Source: Candidatus Eiseniibacteriota bacterium
GTDB taxonomy: Bacteria > Eisenbacteria > RBG-16-71-46
Reading direction: 5' to 3'
Length of the DNA stretch: 58,306 bases
Assembly: GCA_035691845.1 (NCBI GenBank)
Contig: DASSIN010000161.1
Coordinates: 1-58,306, forward strand
A program made the translations under genes and the position numbers. Under the pieces are notes generated by a model that was not told where the DNA came from, searched no databases, and worked only from the letters and a program-made list of their open reading frames with translations. Shown here piece by piece: positions 5,770-55,700 of the stretch; positions within the stretch are counted from its first letter, which is position 1, and the number at the start of each line of letters is the position of its first letter.

Positions 5770-7308
5770 ATGACACCCACTCGCGAACACCCGGGCCGCG
5801 CGGCGGCCGCGCTGGCGCTGACGCTGGCGCTCGGCGCCGGCCGGGCGCACGCCGCGCCGCCGGCGTTCACGCTGTTCGGCTGGGTGAGTCCGCCGCCCGC
5901 CTACACCACGGACGCCCACGTGGCCGAGATGGCGGCGGCCGGGCTCACGCTGATGCTGCCCGCCCAGGACGACTCCGGGCGGGTCGAGGACAACCGCGTG
6001 CGCCTCGACCTGGCGGCCGCGCACGGGCTGAAGTGCATCGTGTGGGACAACCGCTTCGAGCGCGTGGCGAGCCTGGGCGACACCACGGCGGCCGGCGGAG
6101 CGCTGCTCGATTCCATCGTGGCCGACTATCGCGACCATCCGGCGATGTTCGGCTACTACCTGGGCGACGAGCCGACGCGCGACCTGTGGCCGCTGCTCGG
6201 GCGGCTGTTCGCCGAACTGCACGCGCGCGACCCGGTCCATCCGGCGTGGAACAACCTGCTCGGTCGGATCGTCTATCCCGACACGGCCAGCTTCCACGCC
6301 GAACTGCACGACTACGTCGCGGCCGTGCATCCGGCGGTGCTGTCCGACGACCACTACGATTTCGCGGTCGACGGCGACGTGCACGAGTTCTTCGAGAATC
6401 TCTCCGGCCTGGCGGCCGAGGCGCGCGGCGACGGCCTGCCGTTCTGGGTCACGGTGCTGCTCGTCCAGCACACCGGGTTCCGGCAGCCGACGCCCGCGAT
6501 GCTGTCGTGGCAGGCGGCGATGGCGGTGGCGTACGGCGCGCGGGGCGTTGGCTACTTCACGTGGTGGACGCCGCAGCCGGTGTCGTTCTACACGTTCGCG
6601 CCCGCCGTGATCGACACCGACGGGCGGCAGACCGCGTGGTATCCGTTCCTCGAGTGGTTCGATCCCGCCCTGCGCGCGGCGGGGGAGACGCTGGCGCCGC
6701 TCGCATGGCGGGCCACGCTGCACGCTGGCGGAACGCCGCCCGGCGCGCAGCCGTTCGTGCCCGACGCGGACCTCGCCGGCGTCCAGGGCCGCGCCGCGAT
6801 CGGCGAGTTCGCGGACGCCTCGGGCCGGCGCACGGTGATGGTGGTGAACGCCGATTCGCTGGCGCCGCAGCGCGTGACGCTGGCGTTCGCGCCCGTGTTC
6901 GATCTCGAACGCCTGGGTGGTGCCCAGGGGAGCTGGGGTCCGATCGCGGTGCCCGGCGACGGCACCGTGCCGCTCGACCTGCCGGCTGGCGGGTTCGCGG
7001 TGCTGCGGTTCCGCGGACTTTCGGCGGTTTCACCCACCGGGATGGCCCGGTTGACTGCCATCCCGTCACCCGCGCGCGGCCGCGTCTCCCTGGCAGTGTC
7101 CGGGGCGCTCGAAGCCGGCCAATTGGAGGTGCTGGACGCCGCGGGGCGCAAGGTATGGTCGACCCGAACGCGTGCCGGAGACGTCACGTTGGCATGGGAG
7201 GGACAACGCGACGGGGCGGGCTTCGCGGCCCCGGGGGGCTATTTCGCCCGACTGACGACCCGGCAGGGCGTTGCGACGACGCGCTTCGTTTGGCTCGGGA
7301 AACACTGA
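5770..7308 (+). CDS. Secreted glycoside-hydrolase-like TIM-barrel protein with FlgD/T9SS-like CTD
   Basis: Signal peptide ending AHA; GYYLGDEP, VLSDDHYDF, AYGARGVGYF; CTD 'IPSPARG...VLDAAGRKV...WEGQRDGAGFAAPGGYFARL'. Confidence 0.75.
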   Translation: MTPTREHPGRAAAALALTLALGAGRAHAAPPAFTLFGWVSPPPAYTTDAHVAEMAAAGLTLMLPAQDDSGRVEDNRVRLDLAAAHGLKCIVWDNRFERVASLGDTTAAGGALLDSIVADYRDHPAMFGYYLGDEPTRDLWPLLGRLFAELHARDPVHPAWNNLLGRIVYPDTASFHAELHDYVAAVHPAVLSDDHYDFAVDGDVHEFFENLSGLAAEARGDGLPFWVTVLLVQHTGFRQPTPAMLSWQAAMAVAYGARGVGYFTWWTPQPVSFYTFAPAVIDTDGRQTAWYPFLEWFDPALRAAGETLAPLAWRATLHAGGTPPGAQPFVPDADLAGVQGRAAIGEFADASGRRTVMVVNADSLAPQRVTLAFAPVFDLERLGGAQGSWGPIAVPGDGTVPLDLPAGGFAVLRFRGLSAVSPTGMARLTAIPSPARGRVSLAVSGALEAGQLEVLDAAGRKVWSTRTRAGDVTLAWEGQRDGAGFAAPGGYFARLTTRQGVATTRFVWLGKH

Positions 7309-7338
7309 TCTTGGACCTTGCGACTGCCGATATTTCTC

Positions 7339-7366
7339 TTGACGAACCCGCTGCCCAGGCGAGAAT
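7339..7366 (+). promoter_or_regulatory. Candidate sigma70 promoter for 7591..8331
   Basis: TTGACG (7339-7344), 16-nt spacer, GAGAAT (7361-7366) in a locally AT-richer patch. Confidence 0.4.
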
Positions 7367-7590
7367 TTCAAGGAAGGAAATGCGCAGGTTCCGGTGCGGT
7401 CGTCCCATGGATCGGGTTCGCTTGTCCGCATTCGCGCGGGCGGGCACGGCCGGACCCCCCACCTCGGGACGGCGCCGGGCTCCGCAGATCGCGCGGGGTC
7501 GAATTGGGTAGCGGCTCAGATGAAGAAACGGATGTCTCCAGCTGGCCTGCATCTTCGCCTCGTCGTCTTCCAAACACCCAAGGAGGAATC

Positions 7591-8331: not shown

Positions 8332-8349
8332 TCATTCGCATCAGGCGCG

Positions 8350-9440: not shown

Positions 9441-9460
9441 GATTGGGCGCGCGCGACGCC

Positions 9461-11569: not shown

Positions 11570-11601
11570 CCATGGCGCCCGTGATGCCGAACGAGGAGAC
11601 C

Positions 11602-13035
11602 ATGATGCCGTATCCGCGCCACACCCTCGCGCTGCTGCTGCTGGCCGCCACCGCCGTTTCCGCCCATGCCTCGACGCATGCCTACGTGCTCACCAGCGAC
11701 TACTCGAATGGCGGCGTGAGCGTGGCCGACCTCGCCACGCGCACGATGACACGCGACGTCGCCACCGTGTACGAGGACGCGGTCGAGCGCTGGTATCAGG
11801 GCAGGCTGTACGTCGTGAACCGCTACGGCGCCGACAACGTGCAGGTGATCGATCCGGCCGCCGGCTACGCCACCGTCAAGCAGTTCTCGGTCGGCAGCGG
11901 CAGCAATCCGCAGGACATCGCGCTGGTGTCGCCGACGCGCGCATACGTGTCGCGCCTGGGTTCGCCCGATCTGCTGATCGTGAACCCCACGACCGGCGCC
12001 ACGCTCGGCAGCGTGTCACTGGCGGCGTTCGCGGACGCCGACGGCAATCCCGAGGCGGCGCGCATGACGCTGGTGCCGCCGTTCCTGTTCGTGGCGCTGC
12101 AGCGGCTCACGAACTTCCAGCCGCAGCAGGCGGCGATGGTGGCGGTGGTGGACACGCGCGCCGACACGCTGTACGACACCGACCTCGCGACCCCCGGCGT
12201 GCAGGCGATCACGCTGCCGGCGAAGAACCCGGTCACCACGTTCACCGTGCTGCCCGACGGGGCGCCGTATCCCGATCTCCATCTGCTGATCGGCTGCGCC
12301 GGGGCCTACGGCGCGGCCGACGGCGGGATCGCGGACATCGTCGTCACCGGGCTGGCCGAGAACCCGCACCCGGCGATGGCGAGCGCGGGGCTGATCGCGA
12401 CCGAGGCCGCACTCGGCGGCGACGTGGTGGGCGTCGCCTACTATCTGCCGGATCACTCGTACGCCGTCGTCAGCGACGCGTCGTTCAACACCCGGCTCGT
12501 GGCATGGGATCCGCGCACCGGCGGCGTGGTCGGCACCGTCTACGATCCGGGCGGATTCTCGATCGCCGATGCCGCGGTGAACGACCGCCGCGAGCTGTGG
12601 GTGTGCGACAACGGCCTCGCCGCGCCCGGCGTGCGCGTGTTCCGCGCGGGCGCCGACAGCCTGCTCGCCGGCCCGCTCGATGCCGGCCTGCCGCCCGTCG
12701 GCGTCACCTTCGACGAGCTGGAGGACGTTCCGGCCGGCGTTCCAGGCCCGACGCCGCCCGCGTTCGCGCTCGCGCGGCCGACCCCAAACCCGGCGCTGCG
12801 TGTCGCGCATCTCGCGCTCGCGACGCCGCGCGACACGCGCGTGCGCGTTCAGGTGTTCGACGCCGCCGGACGTCGTGTCGCCACGCTGTTCGACGGCATC
12901 GCGCGAGCCGGAACCCTCGCGCTCGACTGGGACCTGAAGGATCGGTCCGGGAACGCGGTGGCGGCTGGGGTGTATGTCGTCCAGGCCGACGGCGAAGGGG
13001 CGAGATCGGAAGGGAAAATCGTCGTCCTGCGCTGA
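11602..13035 (+). CDS. YncE/BtuG-like beta-propeller with FlgD/T9SS-like CTD
   Basis: GAGGAG RBS; signal peptide ending AHA with no lipobox Cys; blades such as LYVVNRYGADNVQVID and NPQDIALVSPTRAYVSR; CTD PTPNPALR...VFDAAGRRVATL...WDLKDRSGNAVAAGVY. Confidence 0.85.
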   Translation: MMPYPRHTLALLLLAATAVSAHASTHAYVLTSDYSNGGVSVADLATRTMTRDVATVYEDAVERWYQGRLYVVNRYGADNVQVIDPAAGYATVKQFSVGSGSNPQDIALVSPTRAYVSRLGSPDLLIVNPTTGATLGSVSLAAFADADGNPEAARMTLVPPFLFVALQRLTNFQPQQAAMVAVVDTRADTLYDTDLATPGVQAITLPAKNPVTTFTVLPDGAPYPDLHLLIGCAGAYGAADGGIADIVVTGLAENPHPAMASAGLIATEAALGGDVVGVAYYLPDHSYAVVSDASFNTRLVAWDPRTGGVVGTVYDPGGFSIADAAVNDRRELWVCDNGLAAPGVRVFRAGADSLLAGPLDAGLPPVGVTFDELEDVPAGVPGPTPPAFALARPTPNPALRVAHLALATPRDTRVRVQVFDAAGRRVATLFDGIARAGTLALDWDLKDRSGNAVAAGVYVVQADGEGARSEGKIVVLR

Positions 13036-13489: not shown

Positions 13490-14230
13490 TTGCGTTTTCG
13501 ACCCTTGCCGATGCTCCTCGTCGTTGCATGCGCAGCATGGCCGCTGCTCGCGCAAGGTTCCGAAATCGACTCCGATCCTTCGACTCCGCCCCCCGCCCCA
13601 GGCAGCCCTTCGCCCACGATCGCGCAGAGTCCCACCGGCAACGCCATCACCGTCACGCTGGCCTGGACGGCGCCCGGTGACGACAGCTTGAGCGGGATCG
13701 CGACCGCGTACGACATGCGCTACTCCAGCGCGCCGATCTACGACTGGAACTTCGGCAGCGGCACGAAGGTGATCGGCATGCCGGTGCCGGGCGCGCCCGG
13801 CACGCTGCAGTCGGTGGCGGTGTCGAACCTGCTGTCCGGCACCACCTACTACTTCGCCATCAAGACCGCCGACGAGCGCGGCAACTGGTCCGGGATCTCG
13901 AACGTCGTGGTCAAGACCGGCGGCACCGCGTCCACGCCGGGGATCGCGATGGGCGAGCTCGATTTCGCCGCGCCCAGCCCCAATCCGGCGCGTTCGAGCA
14001 CCAGCTTCCAGTTCGCGCTTCCGCACGAGGACCGCGTGCAGGCCGACGCCTTCGACATCATGGGCCGGCACGTGCGCACGCTGCTCTCCGGCACCAGGCC
14101 GGCGGGCCACGGCCAGGTGTCGTGGGACTTGAGCGACGAGGCGGGGGCCGCGCTGCCGGCCGGCATCTACCTGGTGCGCGCGACGCTCGGGAACCAGAGC
14201 TTCAACCGGCGCGTGGTCATCGTGAGGTGA
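13490..14230 (+). CDS. Secreted fibronectin type III + FlgD/T9SS-like CTD protein
   Basis: GGAGGA RBS before TTG 13490 gives an RFR-led signal peptide; Pro-rich linker; FN3 'LAWTAPGDD...YDMRYS...L.SGTTYYFAIKTADERGNWSGISN'; CTD PSPNPARS...WDLSDEAG...AGIYLVR. Confidence 0.85.
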   Translation: MRFRPLPMLLVVACAAWPLLAQGSEIDSDPSTPPPAPGSPSPTIAQSPTGNAITVTLAWTAPGDDSLSGIATAYDMRYSSAPIYDWNFGSGTKVIGMPVPGAPGTLQSVAVSNLLSGTTYYFAIKTADERGNWSGISNVVVKTGGTASTPGIAMGELDFAAPSPNPARSSTSFQFALPHEDRVQADAFDIMGRHVRTLLSGTRPAGHGQVSWDLSDEAGAALPAGIYLVRATLGNQSFNRRVVIVR

Positions 14231-17479: not shown

Positions 17480-20059
17480 TCACCGCAGCACCACGATCGG
17501 CCGCGTGATCGCTTGCGCTCCCGCCGCGAGCCGCGCCAGGTAGACGCCGGGCGCGACCGGCCGGCCGAGATCGTCGGCCAGATCCCACGCCAGCGCGTAG
17601 CGGCCGGCGGCGTACGGCGCGGCCGCCAGCGTGCGCACGCGGCGGCCCTGCACGTCGAGCACGTCGAGCGCCACGCGCGCGGCGCGCGGCAGATCGAACG
17701 CCAGCCGCGCCAGCCCCCGCGCCGGGTTGGGCGAGGGGCGATCGAACGCCAGGCGCGCCGCGGGCGGCGCGCCCGGCACGGCGGTCGGCACCGGCTGCAC
17801 GGCGGGATCGAACACCAGCACGCGCAGCGAGTCCAGGTTCATGCCGTCCAGGTCGAGGCCGGAATCGGAGCGCGAGCGCAGCCGGATGCGGATCTTCGTG
17901 CGGCCCGGGCCCGCGAACGGCGACAGGTCCACCCGGTCCGCGCTCCACAGCCAGCGGCCGCCGGTCCATTCGGGCACGCCGTTCGGGATCGAGTTCCCGG
18001 ACTGCGTGCCCACCGCGCTCGCGCGCGCCGGAAGCGGCGTCCACGTCACCGAATCGGGGCTGGCCTCGAACACCGCGCCATCGTAGAACTGCTCCAGGTT
18101 GAAGCGGTCGTCGAGCAGCGCCCAGGCGTGCACGCCGTGCGACAGATCGAGCGGGGCGCTCGCGATCAGCGCGGCGCTCATGTTGGTGGGATAGATGCCC
18201 GCCGGGCTGTCCGAGGCGTAGCGGCTCGGGTGGCGCGGATCGTTCTGCACGATTCCGTAGCCGCCGGAGGCGCTCCACGCGCCGAGCGTGTTGAACGGCT
18301 CGATCCGCAGCGTGGTGGGCGTGCCGAGCAGCACTTCGACCGTGTCGCGCGCGAAGCATTCGCCGGCCCCCGAGAACTCCAGCGCGAACCGCACCAGCCG
18401 GCCCGGCGTCACCGTGTCGGAGCACGACACCGCGAACGTGGCGCCGCCGATGGCGTCGGCGCTGGTGCGGCTCGCCATCGCGGGATAGCTGACCGTGGCC
18501 GTGTCCACGAACACGCCCGCATCCAGCGGGGACAGCGTGGCGGTGAGCGGCGCGGGCGTGGCGGCCAGGCCCAGGTTGCGCGCGCGCACCGACAGGTGCG
18601 CGCGGAAGCCGGCGTCGAGCGCGCCCTCCACGATCGCCGAGCGCTCGACCCGCGGGTAGGGGCCGGCGATCGCGGCCACGAACCACGCCTTGCGCAGGTT
18701 GTCCTCGGCCAGCGGCACGATGCGCGAGGGCGCGGGCCAGAACCCGTCGTCCGCGGTGCCGATCTCGGGCGTCCACGTGAACCCGCGCGGCTTGGCGAGC
18801 GTGTCGCCGTACACCCAGTCGTTGAACTCGCCGTTCACGCGGTACAGCACGCGCGAGGAGTTGCCGCTGGAGTAGCCGCTGCCGATCGTGGCCGCGTCGT
18901 TCCATTCGTAGAACGCCTGCGAATCGGGCGCGGCCGCCGCCTGGTAGCCCCATGGGTGCAGGAACAGATCGCTGTAGGTGTGGTACGCGAGCCCGGTCCT
19001 GGGCTGCAGCCGGACGACGACGTCGCGTTGCGCCTGTGTCTCCGGCTCCGACACCGGGGCCGGGCCGCGATAGTCTTCGGTCGAGCTGTCCGGCTCCGAG
19101 CCGATGTCGTCGAGCCCCCACATGAAGCTGAAGTTGCGGTTGATGTCCACGCCGTCGAAACCGTAGTCCACGATGCCGTTGCCGTTGACGTCGCGCACGT
19201 TCTTGCGGTGGAATCCGCCGCCCGCCGGATGCGTGATGCGGTTCAGCTCGTAGCCATCCGGGTTCACCACCGGCACGATGTACAGCCGGCGCGTGTCGAG
19301 CAGCGAGGTGGCGAACGGATCGCTGCCGTACTTCGACAGGATGTCGTGCACGAAGTAGAGCAGCGCCTGCATCCCCTCCGGCTCGCGCGCGTGGGTCAAG
19401 GCGCTGTAGAACACGACCGGCCGCGGATCGGGGCCGGTCACGCGCCGCCCCAGCGCGAGCCCCCAGATCGGCCGGCCCTGCAGCGTGTAGCCCAGCGTGT
19501 CGAGCTGGTCGGCGACGATGTCGTGCGTGTCGGCGGCCACCAGCGAATCGAGCTCCATCTTCACTTCGTCGAGCGTCCAGTAGCCGCCCATGCTGCCGGA
19601 GCCGAACGGCGGCAGGCTCTGCGCGCGGAACGCGCCGTCCGGAGCGGTCGCGCTGATCACGCGCGCGGGCATGGCACGCGGTCGGGCGGCCAGCTCGCGC
19701 GCGGCGCGCGCGGCCGCGGAGCGCGCCGGGTCGGGATCGAGCACCTCGGTCGCGGCGCCGAGCGCGGCCAGCTTCGCCGCGTCGCCCGGCCACTCCAGCA
19801 CGTCCGCCCACGCGCCGCCGCGCACGCCCACCACGTCGAGCCCGGCCGCGAGCACGCGATCGAGCGTGAGCGCCGCCGTCAGCCGGACGCGCACGAGCTG
19901 CGGCTCCGAGACCGCGATCGCCGCGTTGCGCCACGCGATCGCGGACGCCGGAACCACGGCGCCTGCGCCCGGGGCCGGACCCAGGGCGAGCGCCAGCGCG
20001 AACGCCGCGCCCGCCCGGCAGGCGGGCCGCGGCGCCGGGGCCGGGCGGGGGAGCGTCAT
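17480..20059 (-). CDS. M14 zinc carboxypeptidase with Ig-like/jelly-roll accessory domains and FlgD/T9SS-like CTD
   Basis: HAREPE (H-x2-E), VNPDGY, RKN, GVDINRNF, YHTYS, PEIG; CTD PSPNPARG...WDLADDLGRPVAPGVYLARL. Confidence 0.92.
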   Translation of the reverse strand: MTLPRPAPAPRPACRAGAAFALALALGPAPGAGAVVPASAIAWRNAAIAVSEPQLVRVRLTAALTLDRVLAAGLDVVGVRGGAWADVLEWPGDAAKLAALGAATEVLDPDPARSAAARAARELAARPRAMPARVISATAPDGAFRAQSLPPFGSGSMGGYWTLDEVKMELDSLVAADTHDIVADQLDTLGYTLQGRPIWGLALGRRVTGPDPRPVVFYSALTHAREPEGMQALLYFVHDILSKYGSDPFATSLLDTRRLYIVPVVNPDGYELNRITHPAGGGFHRKNVRDVNGNGIVDYGFDGVDINRNFSFMWGLDDIGSEPDSSTEDYRGPAPVSEPETQAQRDVVVRLQPRTGLAYHTYSDLFLHPWGYQAAAAPDSQAFYEWNDAATIGSGYSSGNSSRVLYRVNGEFNDWVYGDTLAKPRGFTWTPEIGTADDGFWPAPSRIVPLAEDNLRKAWFVAAIAGPYPRVERSAIVEGALDAGFRAHLSVRARNLGLAATPAPLTATLSPLDAGVFVDTATVSYPAMASRTSADAIGGATFAVSCSDTVTPGRLVRFALEFSGAGECFARDTVEVLLGTPTTLRIEPFNTLGAWSASGGYGIVQNDPRHPSRYASDSPAGIYPTNMSAALIASAPLDLSHGVHAWALLDDRFNLEQFYDGAVFEASPDSVTWTPLPARASAVGTQSGNSIPNGVPEWTGGRWLWSADRVDLSPFAGPGRTKIRIRLRSRSDSGLDLDGMNLDSLRVLVFDPAVQPVPTAVPGAPPAARLAFDRPSPNPARGLARLAFDLPRAARVALDVLDVQGRRVRTLAAAPYAAGRYALAWDLADDLGRPVAPGVYLARLAAGAQAITRPIVVLR

Positions 20060-31143: not shown

Positions 31144-33501
31144 GTGCGTTCAGCGCTCCCGAGAAGCCTCGCCCTGGTGCTGGTGCTCGCCTTTGCGCTC
31201 GGCCCCGTGACGTCGTCCCTCGCGGCCACCCCGTTCCCGATGGCGGGCGGCAATTACTTCGAGAACTTCGACGACATCGCGAACTGGACCAACAACTTCG
31301 CGGCCGGGATCGGCGCGCAGTATTGGGCCTCGGTGCCCGTCAACAGCAGCGGCACGATCCCCGACGGCGTCAGGATCACCGTGAGCACGGCCACGTTCGT
31401 GTCGGGCACGACGGGCGGCGTGCAGAAAGGCACGGGCACGATCGAGCTGCTGTCCACGAACGGCACCGACAACATCAACGCCGACGCCATCGACCTGCTG
31501 CTCGACTTCACCGGCATGACGGCCGGCACGTTGAGCTACGACTTCGCCACGGTGTTCAACACCACCGGCAACCGCAACGGCTCGCTGCGCGTCTACACCA
31601 GCACCGACGGCGTCACGTTCACCGAGCTCACCGCCGCCTCGGTCGTCAACTTCCAGAACAACGTCACGTTCTCGAAGCAGGTCTCGCTGGTCCAGCTGCC
31701 GGCGTCGTTCACGAACTGCGCGACGGCGCGCATCCGGTTCTACGACTACAACGGCACCGGGCCATCCGGCTCGTCGGGCGCGCGGCCCAAGGCCTCGATC
31801 GACAACGTCGCCGTGACCGCCACACCGATCAGCGCGGGCGGCCCCGGCGGGCCCGTGATCTCGAACATCGCGACGTTGCCGGCGACGCCGCTGGACACGC
31901 TCGGCGTCGACGTCCAGGCCAGCGTTGTGGACAGCGCGCGCGCGTTGGATGCGGTCTCGCTGGCGTGGGGGCTGAACAGCGCCACGCTCACCAACGTCAT
32001 CAGCATGGGACCCACGGGCGGAGACACGTGGCAGACGGCGCAACCGGTCCCGCCCGAGCCCGGCGGCACCCACGTCTACTACCAGATCACCGCCGTCGAC
32101 GACTCCGCCACCGTGCAGTCGCCGATCCTCGACTACACCGTCACCGCCACGGGCGGTGGCGGCAGCGCGGCGCCCGTTATCACCTCGGTGTACGAGGCCA
32201 GCGACTCGACGCTGCAGGTGTGGTTCAACGAGCCGGTCGACTCCGCCAGTGCGCAGACGCCGGGCAACTACGACGTGAACGGCATCGTGGCCGTGGCCGC
32301 CGCGCGCGACCCGGGCTCGGCCGCTCGCGTGATCATCACCGTGCGCGCCATTCCCGCCGGCGACCGGACGCTCACCGTGAACGGCGTCGGCGATCTGGCC
32401 GATGCGCACTTCACCCGCAACGCCACGTTCGCATTCCACTTCGTGGACGTGTCGATCCCGGCCGCCTACTACGCCAGCGCCGCCGGCCTGCGCGGCTCGG
32501 CGCTGCTGATCGCGCTCCACAACATCATCAAGGGGCACACGGCGCTCACCTACACCGCCACCGCCACCGCGTTCCAGCACACCGACAAGCGCCCCGACGG
32601 CAACGTGTGGGACGTGTATTCCGACGTGCCGGGCGGGACGCCGCCGTACGAGTACGCGTTCGGCCCGCTGGGCTCGGGCAGCACCGAGGGCGTTGCGTAC
32701 AACCGCGAGCACTCGTTCCCGCAGTCGTGGTTCGGCGGCAGCGTGCTGCCGATGTACTCGGACCTGTGGATCATCTACCCGACCGACTCCAAGGTGAACA
32801 GCGAGCGCGGCAACTACCCCTACGGCAAGGTCGGCACCGCGACGTGGACGTCGCTGAACGGCACCCGGCTCGGCAACTGCGTGTCGCCGGGGTACACCGG
32901 CACCTGCTTCGAGCCGATCGACGGCTACAAGGGCGATCTCGCCCGCAGCCAGTTCTACGTGGCCACGCGCTACTACGGCGAGGACGCCTCGTGGCCGGGC
33001 GGCGCTTCGACCGACAAATCGCAGCTGCTGCCGTGGGCGGCCGACCAGTACATGCTGTGGAGCCTGGCCGACTCCGTGAGCTGGAAGGAGCGCGTGCGCA
33101 ACGCCGCGATCTACGAATACCAGCACAACCGCAACCCGTTCGTCGATCACCCCGAGTACGTGAGCGCGATCTGGGACTCCGCCAACGTCACCGGCGTCGG
33201 CGGCGGGACAGCCACGCCGCGGCACGCCATGCTGCGCGCCGCGATGCCGAACCCGTTCCAGGCGCGCACCACGCTTCGCTACGACCTGCCGCGGCGCGAC
33301 CGCGTGACGCTGCGCGTCTACGACCTCTCCGGACGGCTGGTGCGCTCGCTCGTGTCCGGCGCGCTGCAGGACGCCGGACGGCACGCGTGCGAGTGGGATG
33401 GCCGCGACGACGCCGGCGCCCCGATGGCCGCGGGGCTCTACTTCGGCCGGCTCGAGGCGGGCGCGGAACACGACGTGAGCCGGCTGGTGCGGATCCGCTG
33501 A
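31144..33501 (+). CDS. Secreted endonuclease I (EndA/Bsn-type) with N-terminal accessory domains and FlgD/T9SS-like CTD
   Basis: Signal peptide; VWDVYS, YNREHSFPQSW, YPTDSKVNSERGNYPYG, KGDLARSQFYVATRY, ERVRNAAIYEYQHNRNPFVDHPE; CTD PNPFQ...YDLSGRLVRSL...WDGRDDAG. Confidence 0.9.
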   Translation: MRSALPRSLALVLVLAFALGPVTSSLAATPFPMAGGNYFENFDDIANWTNNFAAGIGAQYWASVPVNSSGTIPDGVRITVSTATFVSGTTGGVQKGTGTIELLSTNGTDNINADAIDLLLDFTGMTAGTLSYDFATVFNTTGNRNGSLRVYTSTDGVTFTELTAASVVNFQNNVTFSKQVSLVQLPASFTNCATARIRFYDYNGTGPSGSSGARPKASIDNVAVTATPISAGGPGGPVISNIATLPATPLDTLGVDVQASVVDSARALDAVSLAWGLNSATLTNVISMGPTGGDTWQTAQPVPPEPGGTHVYYQITAVDDSATVQSPILDYTVTATGGGGSAAPVITSVYEASDSTLQVWFNEPVDSASAQTPGNYDVNGIVAVAAARDPGSAARVIITVRAIPAGDRTLTVNGVGDLADAHFTRNATFAFHFVDVSIPAAYYASAAGLRGSALLIALHNIIKGHTALTYTATATAFQHTDKRPDGNVWDVYSDVPGGTPPYEYAFGPLGSGSTEGVAYNREHSFPQSWFGGSVLPMYSDLWIIYPTDSKVNSERGNYPYGKVGTATWTSLNGTRLGNCVSPGYTGTCFEPIDGYKGDLARSQFYVATRYYGEDASWPGGASTDKSQLLPWAADQYMLWSLADSVSWKERVRNAAIYEYQHNRNPFVDHPEYVSAIWDSANVTGVGGGTATPRHAMLRAAMPNPFQARTTLRYDLPRRDRVTLRVYDLSGRLVRSLVSGALQDAGRHACEWDGRDDAGAPMAAGLYFGRLEAGAEHDVSRLVRIR

Positions 33502-41301: not shown

Positions 41302-43047
41302 CTAGTCGAGGACCGCCACCCGGATCCCTCGCACTCCCGTGCCCTGGCGCAGTCGAACCAAGTAGATCCCCGGGGCGATGTGCCGGTCTTTCCCGAGTTC
41401 GAGCGTGTAGGTTCCGGGAGCAAATGCATCCAGCGCGCGCGCCCAGATGCGACGTCCGGCGACGTCGAGCAGCTCCAGCGAGCCGGAGCCACCCGGACCG
41501 AGCGAGAACCGCACCGAGATTCGCCCGGAGCGGGCCGGATTCGGACCCGCCAGATCCAGACTCATCGAAGCGTGCGCGTCGGGCCTCACGCCCGCCGTGC
41601 CGCCGCCGAGCCCGCCGGAAGACAAGATGCGCTGGGCGTAGATGTCCGTCGTGCCATTTCGCATGTCCTGCCAGGTGACGATCGCGCCGCCCGAACCGTC
41701 CGTCGTGATCATCGGCAGGTACTGGGTTTCAGCAGCCGTCGAGACGGGCGTTCCTTTGGTCGCCGCGCTCCAGAGCACGGAACCGGCGGAATTGACGCGC
41801 CGCGCGTACACGTCCGCGTTGGCGCCGTCCACCCGGTAGTCGGCCCACGCCACGATTGCCCCGCCCGCGCCGTCGGTCGTCACCACCGGAGACTGCTGCA
41901 TCCCGGCGAAGTCGCAGACCGCCACGCCCGACGCGGCCCACTGCGCCACGCCGGCCGAAGAGATCCGCTGTGCGCGGATGTCTGCCTGGCTGGTGGAGAA
42001 GTGGCTGAAATCCACCCACGCGACGATGGCTCCACCCGCTCCGTCCGCGACGATCGAAGGAAGCGTTTCGCCGGCAGCATCCGACATGGGCACGCCGTCG
42101 GCGGCCCACTGGACGCTGCCGGTGGACGAGATCCTCTGTGCGTAGATCTTCTCCGCCGAGCGCAGGTCGTCCCAGGCGACGATGGCCCCACCCGATCCGT
42201 CCGCGGCGATCGCCGCGCTGGTCTGATCGTTCGCCGCGTTGCAGAGCGCGACGCCGTTGGTCGTCCATAGCCGGTTGCCGCCGGCGTCGACGCGCTGCGC
42301 GTAGATGTCGCGGTTCGAACTCCCATTGCGGGCATCCGCCCACGTGATGATCCCGCCACCGACGCCGTCGGGAACGATCATCGGGTACTGCTGGCTTCCA
42401 GCGGCGACGCAGATCGGCACACCGTCGGCCTCCCAGATGGGATTGCCCAGGGCCGTGACCCGCCGGGCGTAGATGTCTCCGATCACCTGAGTGGGATCGT
42501 CGCGTCGATCCCACCACGTGATGATCGCGCCACCCGCCCCGTCCGAAATCACGGCCTCGTCGTGCTGGGGCCCGGGGGCGGTGCACACCGGCACGCCGTT
42601 CGGGTCCCAGAGGAGCTCGCCGTTGGCCGAAAGGTGCTGGCAGTAGATGTCGGAGAGCCCCGCGCGCGAATCGTTCCAGGTGACGATCGCGCCTCCCGAG
42701 CCGTCGCTCGTGATGTGGGGAACCAGTTGATCGCCCGTCCCCGTGCAGATCGGGATTCCGTCCGGGCCCCACTGCGCGACGCCGTCGGCCGAGACGCGCT
42801 GGGCGAAGATCTGGTAGTTGGATTCGTTCCGGTAGTCCTGCCAGACGATGAACGCCCCGCCCGTTCCGTCGGGGAGGATCGCGGGGAACTCCTGGTCGAA
42901 GTCCGCGGTGCACACGCCCAGGTTGACCGTGGGATCGCTTGGCCAGGCCGCGACCGCTGGGGAGGGAGCCGCGATGCAGGCGAGCACGGCGGCCAGCCCG
43001 ATCCAACGCCGCGGCGCCATCGTTCGGATGTGTGGGTGATCTCGCAT
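41302..43047 (-). CDS. Secreted repeat (probable 8-bladed beta-propeller) protein with short T9SS-like CTD
   Basis: Signal peptide; eight ~55-aa repeats DGxGGAIVxWxDxR...DIYAQRV...G...W; CTD GPNPARS...LLDVAGRR...PGIYLVRL; GGAAGGAG RBS. Confidence 0.88.
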   Translation of the reverse strand: MRDHPHIRTMAPRRWIGLAAVLACIAAPSPAVAAWPSDPTVNLGVCTADFDQEFPAILPDGTGGAFIVWQDYRNESNYQIFAQRVSADGVAQWGPDGIPICTGTGDQLVPHITSDGSGGAIVTWNDSRAGLSDIYCQHLSANGELLWDPNGVPVCTAPGPQHDEAVISDGAGGAIITWWDRRDDPTQVIGDIYARRVTALGNPIWEADGVPICVAAGSQQYPMIVPDGVGGGIITWADARNGSSNRDIYAQRVDAGGNRLWTTNGVALCNAANDQTSAAIAADGSGGAIVAWDDLRSAEKIYAQRISSTGSVQWAADGVPMSDAAGETLPSIVADGAGGAIVAWVDFSHFSTSQADIRAQRISSAGVAQWAASGVAVCDFAGMQQSPVVTTDGAGGAIVAWADYRVDGANADVYARRVNSAGSVLWSAATKGTPVSTAAETQYLPMITTDGSGGAIVTWQDMRNGTTDIYAQRILSSGGLGGGTAGVRPDAHASMSLDLAGPNPARSGRISVRFSLGPGGSGSLELLDVAGRRIWARALDAFAPGTYTLELGKDRHIAPGIYLVRLRQGTGVRGIRVAVLD

Positions 43048-43092: not shown

Positions 43093-44163
43093 CTAACGCA
43101 GCCGCACGATCCGCTGAACGGCGCCGCGGCCGCCCGCTTCGGCTCTTGCGAAGAACACGCCGCAGCCCGCCGGCGATCCGGCATTGGTGCGACCGTCCCA
43201 TGCGAGCATGAGATTTCCCGCTTCGTGCCAGCCCTTGGCAAGCGTGCGGACCCGCCGGCCAGAAAGGTCGAAGATCGCCACGTCGATTGGGCCGGCGGCA
43301 GGCAGCACACACGCGAGCTGCGTGGGCCCGGCCGCGGGATTCGCTCCGGCCATGCTCAGCGAGAGCTCAGCCGCGGCCCTCGGCCCGCCGACGCCGGCCG
43401 GGGGGGACCAGATGCTGTTCGCGATGGACCACGACGCCGAGTTCAGCGTGTAACCGTTGGGCAGATCCATGACCGGACCGAACGACTCGTCCAACAGCGC
43501 CGTCACCGTTGCCTCGGCCAGGCCGGGGTTGTAGCTGACGTTTCCGTACGTTCCTGCGTCGGCCTGCAGGCTGAACGACACGCCGAATGGTGAGTTGACC
43601 GGGAAGCTTCCGGTCAGGCTCACCGGCACCCGGATCGACGTTCCCGACGCGGCGGCGAAGAGGCCGGTGCCGTGCGGGCCATTCGAGTCCAGCGTAAAGT
43701 CGCCGTAGGTGCCGATGCCGTTGACGTTCAGGTTCGCCCAGACGTGCGACTGTCCGCCGGCGGGCGGGAACCCGCCCTCCAGCCGGAGCGCCGCCGACAC
43801 CAGCAGGCGGAGCGTTCCCGTCACGGAGCCGCCCGGTCCGCTGATGACGAAATCGTCGGTGCTCGTGCCGGCGTAGGTCTCGCCACCGCCGCCGCCCGAG
43901 AGTCCGTTCGACCACTCCGTATCGATGTGACAGGAGGCCGTGTTCACCCCGTTGTCGCTCGCTCCGTGGCCGGTATACCAGCTCGTGCTGTTGCTGCTGC
44001 TCACCTCGAAGTTGCCGTCGCGCGAGAACGGCGTGCCCTGGATCGCCGTGTTGTAGTTGAGGTCGACGCGATAACTCGGGGCCGCGAAGCTGGCCCCGGC
44101 CCCGGCCGCGAGGGCCAGGATGGCAAGGCCGACGATGCGGTTCGACCGCTCGATGCGACTCAC
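43093..44163 (-). CDS. Secreted Gly/Ser/Thr-rich beta protein with FlgD/T9SS-like CTD
   Basis: GAGGAGG RBS, signal peptide; CTD ANPAAG...IFDLSGRRVRTL...WDGRTNAG...GVFFAR. Confidence 0.82.
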   Translation of the reverse strand: MSRIERSNRIVGLAILALAAGAGASFAAPSYRVDLNYNTAIQGTPFSRDGNFEVSSSNSTSWYTGHGASDNGVNTASCHIDTEWSNGLSGGGGGETYAGTSTDDFVISGPGGSVTGTLRLLVSAALRLEGGFPPAGGQSHVWANLNVNGIGTYGDFTLDSNGPHGTGLFAAASGTSIRVPVSLTGSFPVNSPFGVSFSLQADAGTYGNVSYNPGLAEATVTALLDESFGPVMDLPNGYTLNSASWSIANSIWSPPAGVGGPRAAAELSLSMAGANPAAGPTQLACVLPAAGPIDVAIFDLSGRRVRTLAKGWHEAGNLMLAWDGRTNAGSPAGCGVFFARAEAGGRGAVQRIVRLR

Positions 44164-47871: not shown

Positions 47872-50085
47872 CTAGCCGAGCACCGCGACACGAGCCCGCG
47901 CGACATGCGGTCCCTGCGTGAGGCGCATGAAGTACAAACCGGGGACCAGGCGAGTTCCCGTGCTCAGATCGAGCGTGTGCCGTCCGGGCCCGAGCGATCC
48001 GACCTCGCGGCTGGCCACGGTCCGTCCGCTCACGTCGACGAGCTCGAGTCGTGCCGGTTCGCCGCTGAGCAGCGAGAACGAGATCACCAGTCCAAGGTTG
48101 TGCGCAGGGCTCGCCGGAGCATCCAGGGCGAACGCCACGGGGCCGCCGCCGTTCGCGCTCAGCGTTCCGGCTGGCGAGATGAGTGCGAACGCGCTCTCGT
48201 TGCCGTGGATGTCCACCGCGCTCAGCTTGTAGTAGGAACCGGCCGGACCGACGTCCGCGTAGCCGGTGTCGGGCTGGCTGGCTAGCAGGTTCCCCGGGCC
48301 CGGCGTGAATCCGGCCGAGGCGCCCTTGTAGATTCGGTACAGGGAGAAATCAGACTCCGGGTTCACGCCCCAATGAAGAAGCGTCGCTCCCGCCTGATAG
48401 GCCGCAGCGACGGGAGTCGGCGTCCCGGGAGGGAGGTTGTCCACCGAATACCCGCTGTCGGGAGCGGATGACCAGTAGAGGCCGGTCGAGAGTTGCTCGG
48501 CTTCCACCATGATCAGCGTGTTGGGGTTCGATGTGGGCGTCGAGTCGGAAAGCGTCGGCACGCTGTAGCTGTAGCCGGGGAAGCCGTGCGACGCCTGGCT
48601 GCCGACGAACTCCCAGTAGATGACCTGGCCGGCCTCAATCGAGGTGCGGATCGCGCCTGGCCGTGGCGCCGGCCCACCGGCCTCCGTGAGCGACGCAGTG
48701 CTCGTCGGCGTCGCTTCGGAGGTGCCGGTTGGGACTTGCCGCCAGATCCAGTAGGCGTCGATCGGATTGCCGGGCGCAAAGTCCATCATGCTCTTGTTCC
48801 AGCGCACGGTCAGCTTGCCGCCCTCGTCGTTGGGAACGTCCGCGACCGTGACGATCCCTGGCGCGGGATCGACGAACACCCATGCCGCTCCGGCATTCGA
48901 GTTGTCGGCGGTCCCGCCTTCGATTGCGGTGTACCCATCGGCAGAGAGCGCGACCGAGATCGCCTGGCTCGCGGCTCCCGCGGCGCCGGTGCCCACCAGC
49001 TTCGCACCCGGCTGGGTCCACGTCCCGTTGTTGCGCGTGAAGACCCACGCGGCTCCGGTATTCGAGTTGTCGGCGAACCCGCCCACGATCGCGGTGTTGC
49101 CATCGCCCGAGAGGGCGAGCGAGTGCCCTTGGAACGCCCCTCCGATCGGGCCACTTCCCACCAGCTTCGCGCCCTGCTGACTCCACACGCCGCCGCTGCG
49201 CGTGTAGACGAACGCCGCTCCGGCGCCCGAGTTGTCGCCCGACCCTGCCACCATCGCGGTGTTCCCGTCCGCCGAGAGGGCGACCGAGAATCCTTGCTGC
49301 GCGCCCGCCGTCGCATCGACTCCCGTCAGCTTCGCGCCCTGCTGGGTCCACACCCCGCCGCTGCGCGTGAACACCCACGCGGCTCCGAGGTTCGAGTTGT
49401 CGGCAAAGCCGCCCACGATCGCGGTGTTCCCGTCCGCCGACAGGGCGACCGAGAGTCCCTGCCGCGCGCTTCCCACCGCGCCGCTCCCCACCAACTTCGC
49501 GCCCTGCTGACTCCACACGCCGCCGCTGCGCGTGTAGACCCACGCGGCTCCGACGTTCGAGTTGTCGGTGTTGCCACCCACGATCGCCGTGTTGCCGTCC
49601 GCCGAGAGAGCGACCGACAGCCCCTGGTTCGCGGCTCCCGCCGCGCCACTTCCCACCAGCTTCGCGCCCTGCTGGGTCCACAATCCGGCGTTGCGCGTGA
49701 AGACCCACGCCGCTCCGACATTCGTGTTGTCGCCGTTCCCGCCGATGATCACGGTGTTCCCGTCCGCCGACACGGCGACCGATGCTCCTTCCAGCGCGGT
49801 TCCCACCGGGCCCGAGCCGATCAGCTTCGTCTGCTGACTCCACACGTTGCCGCTCCGCGTATAGACCCACGCCGCTCCGGTGCCGCTCGCGCCGTCATGG
49901 AATCCACCCACGATCGCGGTGGTCCCATCCGCGGAGAGCGCGACCGAGGATCCCTGCTGCGCAGCTCCCACGGCCGCCGTGCCCACGAGCTTCGCGCCCT
50001 GCTGGTAGTTGGGCGCAGGGCTCGCTCCGGCGCTTGCCGAGATCACGGTGAGCACAGTGACGAAGATGAGCGCTTTGGGGAGCAT
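47872..50085 (-). CDS. Secreted FG-GAP/integrin-like 7-repeat propeller + Ig/FN3-like domains + short T9SS-like CTD
   Basis: GAGGAG RBS, signal peptide; seven ~55-aa repeats QQGAKLVG...SVALSADGNTAIVGG..DNS..GAAWVFTR; CTD LVDVSGR...PGLYFMRL. Confidence 0.92.
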   Translation of the reverse strand: MLPKALIFVTVLTVISASAGASPAPNYQQGAKLVGTAAVGAAQQGSSVALSADGTTAIVGGFHDGASGTGAAWVYTRSGNVWSQQTKLIGSGPVGTALEGASVAVSADGNTVIIGGNGDNTNVGAAWVFTRNAGLWTQQGAKLVGSGAAGAANQGLSVALSADGNTAIVGGNTDNSNVGAAWVYTRSGGVWSQQGAKLVGSGAVGSARQGLSVALSADGNTAIVGGFADNSNLGAAWVFTRSGGVWTQQGAKLTGVDATAGAQQGFSVALSADGNTAMVAGSGDNSGAGAAFVYTRSGGVWSQQGAKLVGSGPIGGAFQGHSLALSGDGNTAIVGGFADNSNTGAAWVFTRNNGTWTQPGAKLVGTGAAGAASQAISVALSADGYTAIEGGTADNSNAGAAWVFVDPAPGIVTVADVPNDEGGKLTVRWNKSMMDFAPGNPIDAYWIWRQVPTGTSEATPTSTASLTEAGGPAPRPGAIRTSIEAGQVIYWEFVGSQASHGFPGYSYSVPTLSDSTPTSNPNTLIMVEAEQLSTGLYWSSAPDSGYSVDNLPPGTPTPVAAAYQAGATLLHWGVNPESDFSLYRIYKGASAGFTPGPGNLLASQPDTGYADVGPAGSYYKLSAVDIHGNESAFALISPAGTLSANGGGPVAFALDAPASPAHNLGLVISFSLLSGEPARLELVDVSGRTVASREVGSLGPGRHTLDLSTGTRLVPGLYFMRLTQGPHVARARVAVLG
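48871..50010 (-). repeat. Intragenic tandem repeats, ~165-nt period, 7 units
   Basis: GCCCTGCTG anchor recurs at 49171, 49336, 49501, 49666 (165-nt steps) with long identical flanks. Confidence 0.9.
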
Positions 50086-52908: not shown

Positions 52909-53159
52909 GGCGGCGGACTATCCGGATCGCGGGCGCACGAAATCAACCGGTTTCCGCCGATCGCGGTGAGGCATGCGACCGTCGGCACGGCCAGATGTCT
53001 GGTGTTCGCGACCTGTGGCCGTGCGCTAGAATCCCGGCTCACGCCTGTGGTCCCCGCACACGCGCCGGCCGCCGCGAGGTGATCCCTTCGCGGCGATGAG
53101 CGCGCCAGGATGCGGCGGGGAACGACGATCTCGGACGGCACGACGTAGGAGCGTTTGCC

Positions 53160-55700
53160 ATGCCGCAGCCCTCCGGCCCATCACCCCGCCGGCTGGCACG
53201 GACGCTCGCGCTGACGACCGCCTGGGCGGCGTTGGCGCTGGCCGTGCGTGTCGCCCCGACCTCCGCGCAGGTGATCCGCGACGACCTGTGGGTCACGAAC
53301 GGCCCGGTGTACACGGAGCTGATCTCGGGCAGCACGCTCTATCTGGGCGGCCGCTTCGAGCGCGTGGGTCCGCCGATCGGGGGATGGGCGCCGCTCGATC
53401 CCTCGGGCACGCCGATTCCGCCCGCGCCGCAGCTCTCCGGCACCGTGTACTGCACGGTCCCAGACGGCGAAGGCGGCTGGTACGTGGGCGGCTCGTTCGA
53501 CGCCGTGGGCAAGCAGCCGCGCACCCATCTCGCGCGCTTCGACCAGAACGGCCACCTCACCTCATGGGCGCCGAACGTGAACGGGCCGGTGTACGCCATG
53601 TACCTGTTCGCGGGCGTGCTGTACGTGGGTGGCTCGTTCACCAGTGCCGGCGGCCTGGCGCGCACGTGCCTCGCCGCGCTCGACACGCTGACCGGCGGCG
53701 CGCACCCATGGAATCCGGGCGCCGACGGCGAGGTGCACGCCATCTGCCCGTTCGGCTCGTCCATGTTCGTGGGCGGCCAGTTCTTTCATCTGGGCGGTCT
53801 CGCGCGCGGGCGCATCGCCGCGGTCGATACCGCCGGCGTGGTGTGGCCGACCTGGGATCCGGAGGCGAACGGGCAGGTGCTGACGATCGGCGTGCGCCAC
53901 ACGCTCGTCCCCAACACGGTCACGGTGTACGCGGGCGGCGACTACAGCGCGATCGGCGGCCAGGCGCGCAACAGTCTCGCCGCCATCGACGCCACCAGCG
54001 GGTCCGCCACCTTCGGCCAGGCGACGGCGTTCAATCCCAACGCCAACAATGCGGTGCGCACGATGATCATCGTCGGGACGCTGTCGCCCACGATCTACGT
54101 GGGTGGCGACTTCACCGCGATCGGCGGCGTGGGCCGCAACGCGCTGGCGGCGCTGAACGGCTCGGGCGCGGCCACGGCGTGGAATCCGGGCATCACCAAC
54201 GGCGGTGGACGCCTCGTGTCCCCGTCGGTGTTCGCGCTGGCGTTGAGCGGGACCACCATGTACGTCGGCGGCAGCTTCGACTTCATCAACGGGCAGCCGC
54301 GCTTCGACGCCGGCGCCCTGGACACGGGCACGGGCGCGGTGTCGGCGTGGAATCCCGACCCCGCGGGACGCGTCAACGCCATCGGCCTCGGGATGTTTTC
54401 AGAGTACCTGGGCGGCGAGTTCGCGAGCCTGGGCGGCGTGGTGCGGCACAACGTCGCGGCGCTCGACCTCGTCACCGGCGAGGCGAACGGATGGGATCCC
54501 AACAGCGATGGCGAGGTGGACGCGCTGCAGGTCGTGAACGGGCTGATCTACGCCGGCGGTCAGTTCGCGAACATCGGTGGCGGGGCGCACGCCTACGTCG
54601 CGCAGCTCGACGCCACGACCGGCGTGGCCGGGGGATGGAACCCGAATGCCAATGGCGGCGTCACCTCGATTGGCGGGCGCACGGCCATGAGTCGCAGCAC
54701 GATCTTCATGGGCGGCGCGTTCACGAACGTGAACGGAGTGACGCGCCATCATCTGGCGGCGTGGCTCATGGACCCGATCTCGCCCGGCGTGACGAGCTGG
54801 AATCCCGCGCCCGACAGCACGGTCAACGCACTCACCGTATCCGGCAGCACGGTGTTCGTGGGCGGCGCGTTTCACAACGTCGGGGGGGCGGGGCGCAACT
54901 TCGTGGCCGCGCTGGACCTCACCGGCGCCGCGACGGCGTGGAACGGTGCCATCGCAGACGGCGCGGTGACGGCGCTGGCCGCCACCGGCACGCGGGTGTA
55001 CGCGGGCGGGGCGTTCACGCAGGCGGCCGGCGCCCTGCATCGCGGCATCGTAGCAATGGACCAGGGCACCGGCGCCACGCAGTCCTGGCCGGCGCAGGTG
55101 TTCGGGCAGGTGTACGCGATCGCGCCCACGGCAGCCGCGATCTATGCCGCCGGAACCTTCACCAACGTCGGCGGCTCCACGCGCACGAACCTCGCGGCGC
55201 TCGATCCCACCTCCGGCGCGCCGAGCGCGTGGGATCCGGAGCCATGGAACCCGATCCAGTTCCCGGCGGCGCTCCTGCCCAGGTTCGGGATCGCGCTGGC
55301 CGAGCAATCCGGGCGCGTCTACGCCGCCGGCGACTTCGGCACCATCCTCGACACTCCGCACGCGCGCGTGGCCGGCATCTTCGAGAGCACGGCCGCGGTC
55401 GATCCGGGAACGCCGGCGATGACGCACGTGCCCGCGATCGAGGCCGAGCCGAACCCGTTCCGCGCCGGCGTGATGCTCGGGTTCGCGCCTCCGCGCGCGG
55501 TCGAGGTCGCGGTGCGCATCTACGACCTCTCGGGCCGCATCGTGCGCACGCTCACCGGCGCGCAGGCGGCGGCCGGCATGCAGCACGTGCGCTGGGACGG
55601 CCGCGACCAATCAGGCCGGCTCGTCCCGCCCGGCGTATACGTGGTGCGCGCGCGCGCGGACGGCTGGCAGGCGAGCGGCCGGCTGCTGCGCATCCGCTGA
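53160..55700 (+). CDS. Secreted ~14-repeat beta-propeller protein with FlgD/T9SS-like CTD
   Basis: AGGAG RBS, signal peptide; repeats WNPxxNGxVxAL...LYVGGxFTxIGGxxRxxLAALD; CTD EPNPFR...IYDLSGRIVRTL...WDGRDQSG...GVY. Confidence 0.92.
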   Translation: MPQPSGPSPRRLARTLALTTAWAALALAVRVAPTSAQVIRDDLWVTNGPVYTELISGSTLYLGGRFERVGPPIGGWAPLDPSGTPIPPAPQLSGTVYCTVPDGEGGWYVGGSFDAVGKQPRTHLARFDQNGHLTSWAPNVNGPVYAMYLFAGVLYVGGSFTSAGGLARTCLAALDTLTGGAHPWNPGADGEVHAICPFGSSMFVGGQFFHLGGLARGRIAAVDTAGVVWPTWDPEANGQVLTIGVRHTLVPNTVTVYAGGDYSAIGGQARNSLAAIDATSGSATFGQATAFNPNANNAVRTMIIVGTLSPTIYVGGDFTAIGGVGRNALAALNGSGAATAWNPGITNGGGRLVSPSVFALALSGTTMYVGGSFDFINGQPRFDAGALDTGTGAVSAWNPDPAGRVNAIGLGMFSEYLGGEFASLGGVVRHNVAALDLVTGEANGWDPNSDGEVDALQVVNGLIYAGGQFANIGGGAHAYVAQLDATTGVAGGWNPNANGGVTSIGGRTAMSRSTIFMGGAFTNVNGVTRHHLAAWLMDPISPGVTSWNPAPDSTVNALTVSGSTVFVGGAFHNVGGAGRNFVAALDLTGAATAWNGAIADGAVTALAATGTRVYAGGAFTQAAGALHRGIVAMDQGTGATQSWPAQVFGQVYAIAPTAAAIYAAGTFTNVGGSTRTNLAALDPTSGAPSAWDPEPWNPIQFPAALLPRFGIALAEQSGRVYAAGDFGTILDTPHARVAGIFESTAAVDPGTPAMTHVPAIEAEPNPFRAGVMLGFAPPRAVEVAVRIYDLSGRIVRTLTGAQAAAGMQHVRWDGRDQSGRLVPPGVYVVRARADGWQASGRLLRIR

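Follow-up and report, generated by a model that had tools for sequence, protein, structure and literature searches.

The 58,306-nt stretch of DNA analysed here in full (contig DASSIN010000161.1 of assembly GCA_035691845.1, Candidatus Eiseniibacteriota bacterium; hereafter the window) encodes nine secreted proteins that share a C-terminal tail, and we connect this tail with a secretion system of type IX (T9SS), whose detected machinery genes all lie elsewhere in the same genome. Because G+C in the window is high (72-75%), long spurious open reading frames (ORFs) occur in all six frames; we used G+C by codon position to tell real genes from shadow ORFs, and by this measure all nine genes named in an initial annotation of the window are real. 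An N-terminal signal peptide is present in each of the nine, as judged by eye and with no dedicated predictor. The cargo parts are unrelated to one another: an M14 carboxypeptidase, an Endonuclease I, an FN3 protein, FG-GAP/Kelch and DUF5122 propellers, and a beta-propeller-repeat protein are among them. The initial annotation had thus described the set correctly, as secreted proteins with unrelated cargo and a common C-terminal domain (CTD). It had also divided the tails into seven of a long form and two of a short form (genes 41302 and 47872), a division that we could reproduce and extend to the whole genome.

We name each gene by its lowest coordinate and give scores against FlgD_ig (PF13860), TIGR04183 (the T9SS type-A sorting domain) and our own hidden Markov model (HMM) of the tail. 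Gene 5770 (5770..7308, plus strand) encodes a secreted protein of 512 aa with the signal peptide ...GRAHA/APP (the slash marks the cleavage site) and a long-form CTD at about 7063-7305 (FlgD_ig 21.1 bits, TIGR04183 18.1 bits, own HMM 57 bits); it ends at 7308 and not, as first annotated, at 7511. A minus-strand ORF of 1123 codons that overlaps it (3661-7029) was rejected as an antisense shadow by codon-position G+C. Only the part of that frame up to about 5560 is genuine and encodes a membrane permease; the remainder is a shadow of gene 5770, an artefact typical at 73% G+C. A secreted propeller-like protein of 477 aa with signal peptide ...SAHA/ST is encoded by gene 11602 (11602..13035, plus strand), whose long-form CTD spans about 12784-13032 (FlgD_ig 32.3 bits, TIGR04183 22.3 bits). 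The smallest protein of the set, at 246 aa, is the FN3-domain protein of gene 13490 (13490..14230, plus strand), with a match to fn3 and a long-form CTD at about 13979-14227 that scores 33.3 bits against FlgD_ig, 23.4 bits against Por_Secre_tail (PF18962) and 29.8 bits against TIGR04183. On the minus strand, gene 17480 (17480..20059) encodes a secreted M14 zinc carboxypeptidase of 859 aa (Peptidase_M14, E 2.8e-53) with a long-form CTD at 17483-17731 (FlgD_ig 29.9 bits, own HMM 98.5 bits), and the plus-strand gene 31144 (31144..33501) encodes a secreted Endonuclease I-family nuclease of 785 aa (Endonuclease_1, E 4.1e-59) with a long-form CTD at about 33247-33498 (FlgD_ig 42.3 bits, own HMM 100 bits).

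The remaining four genes include both short-tailed members. Gene 41302 (41302..43047, minus strand) encodes a secreted beta-propeller-repeat protein of 572-581 aa, and its short-form CTD (41305-41550) scores 20.1 bits against TIGR04183 within the whole protein and 25.8 bits as a tail alone, with no match to FlgD_ig. Next to it on the same strand lies gene 43093 (43093..44163; 356 aa; signal peptide ...GASFA/AP), with a long-form CTD at 43096-43344 (FlgD_ig 28.1 bits, own HMM 92 bits). For the cargo parts of genes 5770 and 43093, Pfam and NCBIfam scans assigned no domain. Gene 47872 (47872..50085, minus strand) encodes a secreted FG-GAP/Kelch-type propeller protein of 737 aa (FG-GAP_2, E 2e-16) with a short-form CTD at 47875-48120 (TIGR04183 17.7 bits, FlgD_ig none, own HMM 64 bits). 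We set its start to 50085: a GAGGAG ribosome-binding site lies ahead of this codon, and the protein then opens with a clean signal peptide, MLPKALIFVTVLTVISASAGA/S; the upstream ATG at 51066, which had been annotated as the start, yields no signal peptide and was rejected. Finally, gene 53160 (53160..55700, plus strand) encodes a secreted DUF5122 beta-propeller protein of 846 aa (DUF5122, E 5.7e-17), whose long-form CTD at about 55449-55697 scores 42.5 bits against FlgD_ig and, taken alone, 28 bits against TIGR04183.

The common tail occupies about 83 residues (80-85) at the C terminus and aligns readily across all nine proteins, with the consensus PNP...(F/Y/L)D..GR.V...G.....(W/L)D...G.Y..R....V..R followed by the stop. 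We built an HMM from the nine tails and iterated it over all six-frame ORFs of the genome, an assembly of 316 contigs that totals 3.35 Mb and is 94% complete; the HMM converged at once, and the final census was taken by hmmsearch --max on the last 130 residues of each ORF. The tail of gene 11602 is recovered only with --max, as the default bias filter discards its long stop-to-stop ORF. In this census, the domain is found in 144 ORFs genome-wide and, within the window, in exactly the nine; reversed sequences gave zero matches to the same HMM. The tail ends no more than 8 residues from the stop in 127 of the 144 ORFs and no more than 30 residues from it in 141, all nine window genes among them. 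Tail carriers make up about 5% of some 2,845 called genes and encode long proteins (median 662 aa, versus 290 aa for other genes). A signal-peptide-like start, scored by a crude regular expression that is informative as an enrichment only, is seen in 58% of the ORFs with a tail, compared with 26% among control genes. With 1.7% of the genome and 9 of the 144 tail genes, the window shows a mild local enrichment.

We then compared the tails with known families, counting matches to TIGR04183 at E ≤ 0.01 beside its cut-off of 23 bits. On whole proteins, TIGR04183 weakly matches eight of the nine, and gene 43093 gives no match at this threshold. Seven of the nine have a FlgD_ig match, which exceeds the 27-bit cut-off in six (28.1-42.5 bits) and falls short of it in gene 5770; in the Pfam scan, the short-tailed genes 41302 and 47872 have no FlgD_ig match. 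The result is clearer when tails are tested without the rest of the protein: TIGR04183 matches 41 of the 42 short tails and 50 of the 55 long ones, 54 of the 55 long and only 2 of the 42 short tails match FlgD, and 48 of the 55 long tails also hit the PorU model in its CTD region. Against PDB sequences, the best match of a short-tail profile is the CTD of RgpB (E 3.7e-6), and a long-tail profile matches FlgD (1e-12), the PorU CTD (8e-7), the RgpB CTD (1.5e-4) and the PorZ CTD (6e-4). AlphaFold2 models of one tail per form are confident seven-strand sandwiches, with a predicted local distance difference test score of 97.5 for the long form (gene 53160) and 93.4 for the short form (gene 41302); Foldseek matches the long-form model to FlgD, the PorU CTD (TM-score 0.76-0.79), the PorZ CTD and the mirolase CTD. 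Together, these data support the assignment of the tails as T9SS type-A-like CTDs. The FlgD_ig matches point to kinship at the level of the fold only. We considered and rejected the reading of these proteins as true FlgD proteins: the N-terminal part of FlgD is lacking, and Sec signals and enzyme cargo are present.

The two forms differ in one loop, the length of which is bimodal: among 134 tails aligned to the HMM, 91 are long, 42 are short and 1 is intermediate. Long tails contain a full WDGRD..G loop, with a tryptophan in 88 of the 91, and short tails lack 3-6 residues of it, usually 5, with a leucine, valine or phenylalanine usually replacing the tryptophan. The short form mostly groups together in a tree built from the tails (15 Fitch changes, compared with about 37 when labels are shuffled). 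Profile-profile comparison with hhalign nonetheless joins the two as a single family separated by a 5-column gap (99.85% probability, E 1.3e-30). The form is also kept between orthologues: for gene 41302, 13 full-length ones were found in other genera, at 41-84% identity and spanning families f1 and f3 and possibly f2, and every one of them has a short tail; longer paralogues of the same propeller family bear long tails. This family is heavily expanded, with 14 matches in this genome and 1-21 matches in 57 of 61 genomes (this genome and 60 relatives); its members vary in domain architecture, with lengths of about 580 to 1300 aa, and the paralogues differ in tail form. Judged by these comparisons, tail form is a stable inherited property that is conserved among orthologues, and both forms appear as conserved sub-lineages within one homologous domain family. 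The short form resembles a classical cargo tail of the RgpB type, and the long form resembles FlgD and, through the WDGRD loop, the tails of PorU and PorZ. That one form is RgpB-like and the other PorU/PorZ-like is suggestive, and no more than suggestive, of different handling.

Core machinery for such tails is encoded by the genome. On contig C144, a 2097-aa ORF scores 529 bits against the SprA model TIGR04189 (cut-off 200), and SprA exceeds this cut-off in 19 of 21 genomes (this genome and 20 relatives). PorU, on contig C223, scores 439 bits against NF033707, for which the cut-off is 420; of 13 genomes (this one and 12 relatives), 12 have a PorU that exceeds it. The dyad of the PorU encoded here is intact, with GHG and SCD motifs that align with the catalytic histidine and cysteine of 6za2, and its C terminus is itself a long-form tail; an orthologue in another Eisenbacteria genome (L019) matches Peptidase_C25 at E 3e-68. 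Directly downstream of porU lies the gene for a PorV-family barrel, which scores 174.6 bits against the PorV/PorQ family model NF033709 (cut-off 90). This porU-porV order is kept in other Eisenbacteria genomes, and homologues of the PorV barrel at 47-71% identity come, wherever an organism is named, from metagenome-assembled genomes of Candidatus Eisenbacteria, including a closed chromosome of 4.16 Mb (OY970342.1). Four further PorV/PorQ-family barrels bring the total to five; they fit PorQ better than PorV, at 77-81 bits against a PorQ cut-off of 220. The initial annotation had referred to a PorV-like protein; the window itself holds neither a gene for one nor any other T9SS machinery gene.

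Several features surround these core genes. In relatives (L019 6954-12941; L023, L025 and L028), the next gene after porU-porV encodes an M6-like protein of about 1136 aa that bears a tail (132 bits on NF052323, under its cut-off), and the same conserved operon continues with two proteins that end in phenylalanine (about 262 and 301 aa) and match no family, and then with an NHL propeller. The two small proteins look like outer-membrane barrels and may be undescribed T9SS-linked components of the outer membrane. The neighbour of sprA encodes a secreted homologue of glutaminyl cyclase (303 aa), whose best PDB match is 6qql, a chain that was deposited under the name glutamine cyclotransferase (E 4.5e-46). 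On the minus strand of contig C144 (2330-9579), sprA and the cyclase gene are followed by rimP, nusA and infB, with lptF and lptG divergent upstream. The Porphyromonas cyclase modifies the N-terminal glutamine of exported proteins; in the window, a glutamine is apparently exposed after signal-peptide cleavage in only two of the nine cargo proteins.

Four barrel triads occur in the genome (C167, 7860-14614; C100, 7045-14374; C260, 1756-6026; C266, 4927-11901). Each consists of a TonB-dependent-receptor-like barrel (about 900-1000 aa), a tail-bearing protein (about 700-1100 aa) and a PorV/PorQ-family barrel, and the tail-bearing partners have a further tail variant, ...GIYIFxV...GRFVIIR. The triads look like dedicated receptor-partner-anchor modules. 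Within the window, gene 11602 lies 32 nt downstream of a gene for a TonB-dependent receptor (9443-11569, with Plug and TonB_dep_Rec domains), and the pair (9443-13035) has the look of a receptor and a surface partner that the T9SS displays.

Searches for the motor, the ring and PorP returned no credible match. GldL (TIGR03513) was found in none of 13 genomes, a search with no T9SS-bearing control, and GldL_N (PF22827) in none of 10 genomes even at E ≤ 1. GldM (TIGR03517) was absent from 13 genomes and then from 301 (this genome and 300 close relatives, in 178 genera), and GldM_1st (PF12081), searched at E ≤ 1 in eight genomes, gave three chance-level matches (11-13 bits, E 0.25-0.72) in three of them and none in this genome. 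For GldN (TIGR03523), there was no match in 8 genomes, again with no T9SS-bearing positive control; none of our 14 control genomes has a T9SS, and hence the GldL, GldM and GldN models have no positive-control match, which leaves room for very divergent homologues of GldL and GldM. GldK (TIGR03525) was not found in this genome or in eight relatives of the same family, and the same model does pick up distant FGE-sulfatase proteins in the controls Caulobacter and Methanosarcina. The PorP/SprF model TIGR03519 yielded weak cross-matches to PorV-family barrels, at no more than 24 bits against a cut-off of 90.55. The closed chromosome was included in the PF12081, PF22827, TIGR03523 and TIGR03519 searches. 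The GldL-type motif FKIxHWPG occurs in no six-frame ORF of the genome, although this is a weak test. SprA, PorU and PorV of the same genomes were found at E 1e-29 to 1e-121.

Very likely, in our view, this Candidatus Eisenbacteria bacterium has a type IX secretion pathway, and the nine proteins are part of its ordinary cargo. Such a pathway is well supported because the genome has SprA, a PorU with both the dyad and a tail, an adjacent PorV and four more barrels. The cargo would cross the inner membrane through Sec by means of the N-terminal signal peptides seen in the sequence. At the outer membrane, by homology with known systems, the SprA translocon and a PorV-family barrel would recognise the type-A CTD, and PorU, a C25-family sortase, would then cut off the tail, leaving the cargo to be released or attached to the surface. 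As PorK, PorL, PorM, PorN and PorP were not found, the machinery reads as a reduced version of the Bacteroidota system: it appears to comprise SprA, PorU, PorV, PorQ-like barrels and the sprA-linked glutaminyl cyclase, with no PorK/N ring, PorL/M motor or PorP. On the searches above, the canonical motor and ring are probably truly absent.

Several results weigh against this picture of ordinary type IX cargo. On whole proteins, TIGR04183 passes its cut-off for gene 13490 only, and seven others score 16.7-22.3 bits. The Foldseek matches of the short-form model are generic Ig-like domains, with the mirolase CTD (TM-score 0.66) and the NucA CTD lower down; the assignment of the short tails rests on sequence profiles. 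With the strict PorV equivalog model, PorV reaches 110.6 bits and so stays under the cut-off of 250. Finally, GldK, GldL, GldM, GldN and PorP, which are essential in the Bacteroidota that have been studied, are undetected in this genome, so that either the pathway works differently or the missing parts have diverged past recognition.

If the missing parts had merely diverged, a full machine would be present with equivalents of PorK, PorL, PorM and PorN beyond the reach of HMMs, and the apparent reduction would be an artefact of detection. The lack of any positive control for the GldL, GldM and GldN models leaves room for this, as do the two small barrel-like proteins of the Eisenbacteria porU operon that match no family. 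Yet the other components would have to be far more diverged than SprA, PorU and PorV, since at equal divergence they would remain detectable; the GldK model reaches distant FGE-sulfatase proteins but nothing in this genome or its eight relatives; GldM is missing from every one of the 301 genomes; and neither PF12081 nor PF22827 returned anything credible at E ≤ 1, even with a closed chromosome in the search. The absence of the FKIxHWPG motif points the same way, if weakly. We regard a hidden complete machine as possible, if doubtful. A more radical alternative holds that the tail is no export signal at all, and instead a general Ig domain of the FlgD/Vpr type that serves surface adhesion or folding in proteins leaving the cell by another route. 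FlgD is indeed the top database match of the long form, and C5a peptidase and Vpr have similar Ig domains. This alternative is very improbable in our view: the tail is C-terminal in 141 of 144 ORFs, present in a single copy per protein and attached to unrelated cargo, which is typical of a sorting tag; the N-terminal part of FlgD is lacking throughout the set; PorU itself bears the tail, as in Porphyromonas; and SprA, PorU and PorV occur together in nearly every relative searched.

A further possibility concerns the two tail forms. In known systems, PorU removes the tail of type-A cargo, which is attached to anionic lipopolysaccharide or released; the CTDs of Porphyromonas gingivalis PorU and PorZ are retained and bind PorV and PorQ. 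By analogy, short tails might be delivered to PorV and cleaved by PorU, as for RgpB, and long tails might be retained on a PorV- or PorQ-like barrel. The bimodal loop with its single intermediate, the clustering of the short form on the tree, the constancy of form in all 13 orthologues of gene 41302 beside long-tailed paralogues, the separate resemblances to RgpB and to PorU and PorZ, and the presence of five PorV/PorQ-family barrels would all fit such a scheme. On the other hand, the forms belong to one family and both match TIGR04183; the 91 long-tailed enzymes and propellers far exceed what five barrels could hold one to one; and four of the five barrels sit in receptor-cargo-barrel triads of their own with a further tail variant, and so look dedicated there. 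We consider two separate routes unlikely. The initial annotation had spoken of two signal classes: the two conserved forms hold, but they differ by a five-residue loop within one family, and their separate routing is conjecture. Equally unlikely, in our estimation, is the broadest version of these ideas, in which the whole phylum would run a T9SS with its outer-membrane half only (SprA, PorV, PorU and the cyclase), unpowered or powered by something unrecognised, and the two tail forms would split about 140 cargo proteins into short-tailed ones that are cleaved and long-tailed ones that are retained on PorV/PorQ-type barrels.

We also considered the window as a T9SS gene island and rejected this, as it is without any machinery gene and the nine genes are scattered among others. 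The genes between them encode a permease, a TonB-dependent receptor, heparinase-like, glycosyltransferase, Ser/Thr kinase and beta-lactamase-fold proteins, and others. Two genes (7591-8331, 246 aa; 36935-38227, 430 aa) score well as genes and have no Pfam match.

If the nine proteins are ordinary type IX cargo, a secretion system that has been studied in depth elsewhere reaches into a poorly known phylum of soil and groundwater. Tagged cargo, with peptidases, nucleases, propellers and binding proteins among it, would account for about 1 gene in 20, and much of the cell surface of these uncultured organisms is probably built by type IX secretion. Of more use as a lead is a very large cargo set combined with a motor and ring that are apparently absent. 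In the Bacteroidota studied so far, the GldLM motor is required for export through SprA; if the absence is true, a motor-less lineage with SprA, PorV and PorU would provide a natural experiment on the role of the motor. The existence of an RgpB-like and a PorU-like tail also gives a concrete, testable hypothesis of cargo sorting.

We take Eisenbacteria to be a lineage of the FCB (Fibrobacterota-Chlorobiota-Bacteroidota) group and a relative of Bacteroidota; NCBI taxonomy files Candidatus Eiseniibacteriota under unplaced candidate phyla. According to reviews and a 2025 Nature paper (PMC12611786, PMC12398890, PMC11285876), the T9SS and SprA occur specifically in the FCB superphylum, and there is BLAST evidence for a T9SS outside Bacteroidetes (PMC5837995). 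Because the T9SS was already known to be FCB-specific, we describe a new member and not a new system. The earlier claim of a T9SS-related pathway outside classical Bacteroidota is supported in part, by type-A-like tails and by SprA, PorU and PorV in the genome, and overstated its novelty. In the library of papers that we searched, none joins Eisenbacteria with type IX secretion, and none joins the FlgD Ig-like domain with it.

Among known domains, a close parallel is with the type-A CTDs of Bacteroidota (TIGR04183/PF18962; RgpB 5hfs and 5ag8; mirolase 8qb1; the NucA-SprA-PorV complex 8glk), which are likewise seven-strand Ig-like sandwiches of about 80 residues at the extreme C terminus of signal-peptide proteins with unrelated cargo. 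The Eisenbacteria tails come from a different host and depart from them in that two thirds have five extra residues in a WDGRD loop and give higher scores as FlgD_ig. A second parallel is with the CTDs of PorU and PorZ in Porphyromonas gingivalis (6za2, 5m11): in both sequence and structure, long tails resemble that of PorU, at the E value and TM-scores given above, and Eisenbacteria PorU has a long tail as its P. gingivalis counterpart does; unlike there, the PorU-like form occurs on about 90 ordinary enzymes and propellers and not on machinery alone. The best sequence and structure match of the long form is the Ig-like domain of the flagellar hook cap FlgD (PF13860; 3osv, 7eh9). FlgD is exported from the cytoplasm and has its own N-terminal domain, whereas the Eisenbacteria proteins have Sec signals, enzyme or propeller cargo and the domain as a terminal tag, and the resemblance is one of fold, not function.

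As a system, the Eisenbacteria pathway has SprA, a porU-porV pair whose dyad is intact and PorQ-like paralogues in common with the T9SS of Bacteroidota, and it shares a glutaminyl cyclase with that of Porphyromonas. It differs in that PorK, PorL, PorM, PorN and PorP are not detected, sprA is paired with the cyclase gene, and porU-porV is followed by genes for the M6-like tail-bearing protein and the two barrel-like proteins. Another likeness is the reduced set reported for Melioribacter and Ignavibacterium, which have PorV, SprA and Plug and no other T9SS protein (PMC11705866): in both cases, a translocon module without motor and ring is found in an FCB phylum beyond Bacteroidota. In contrast to Melioribacter and Ignavibacterium, Eisenbacteria retain PorU and have a very large cargo set, amounting to about 5% of their genes.

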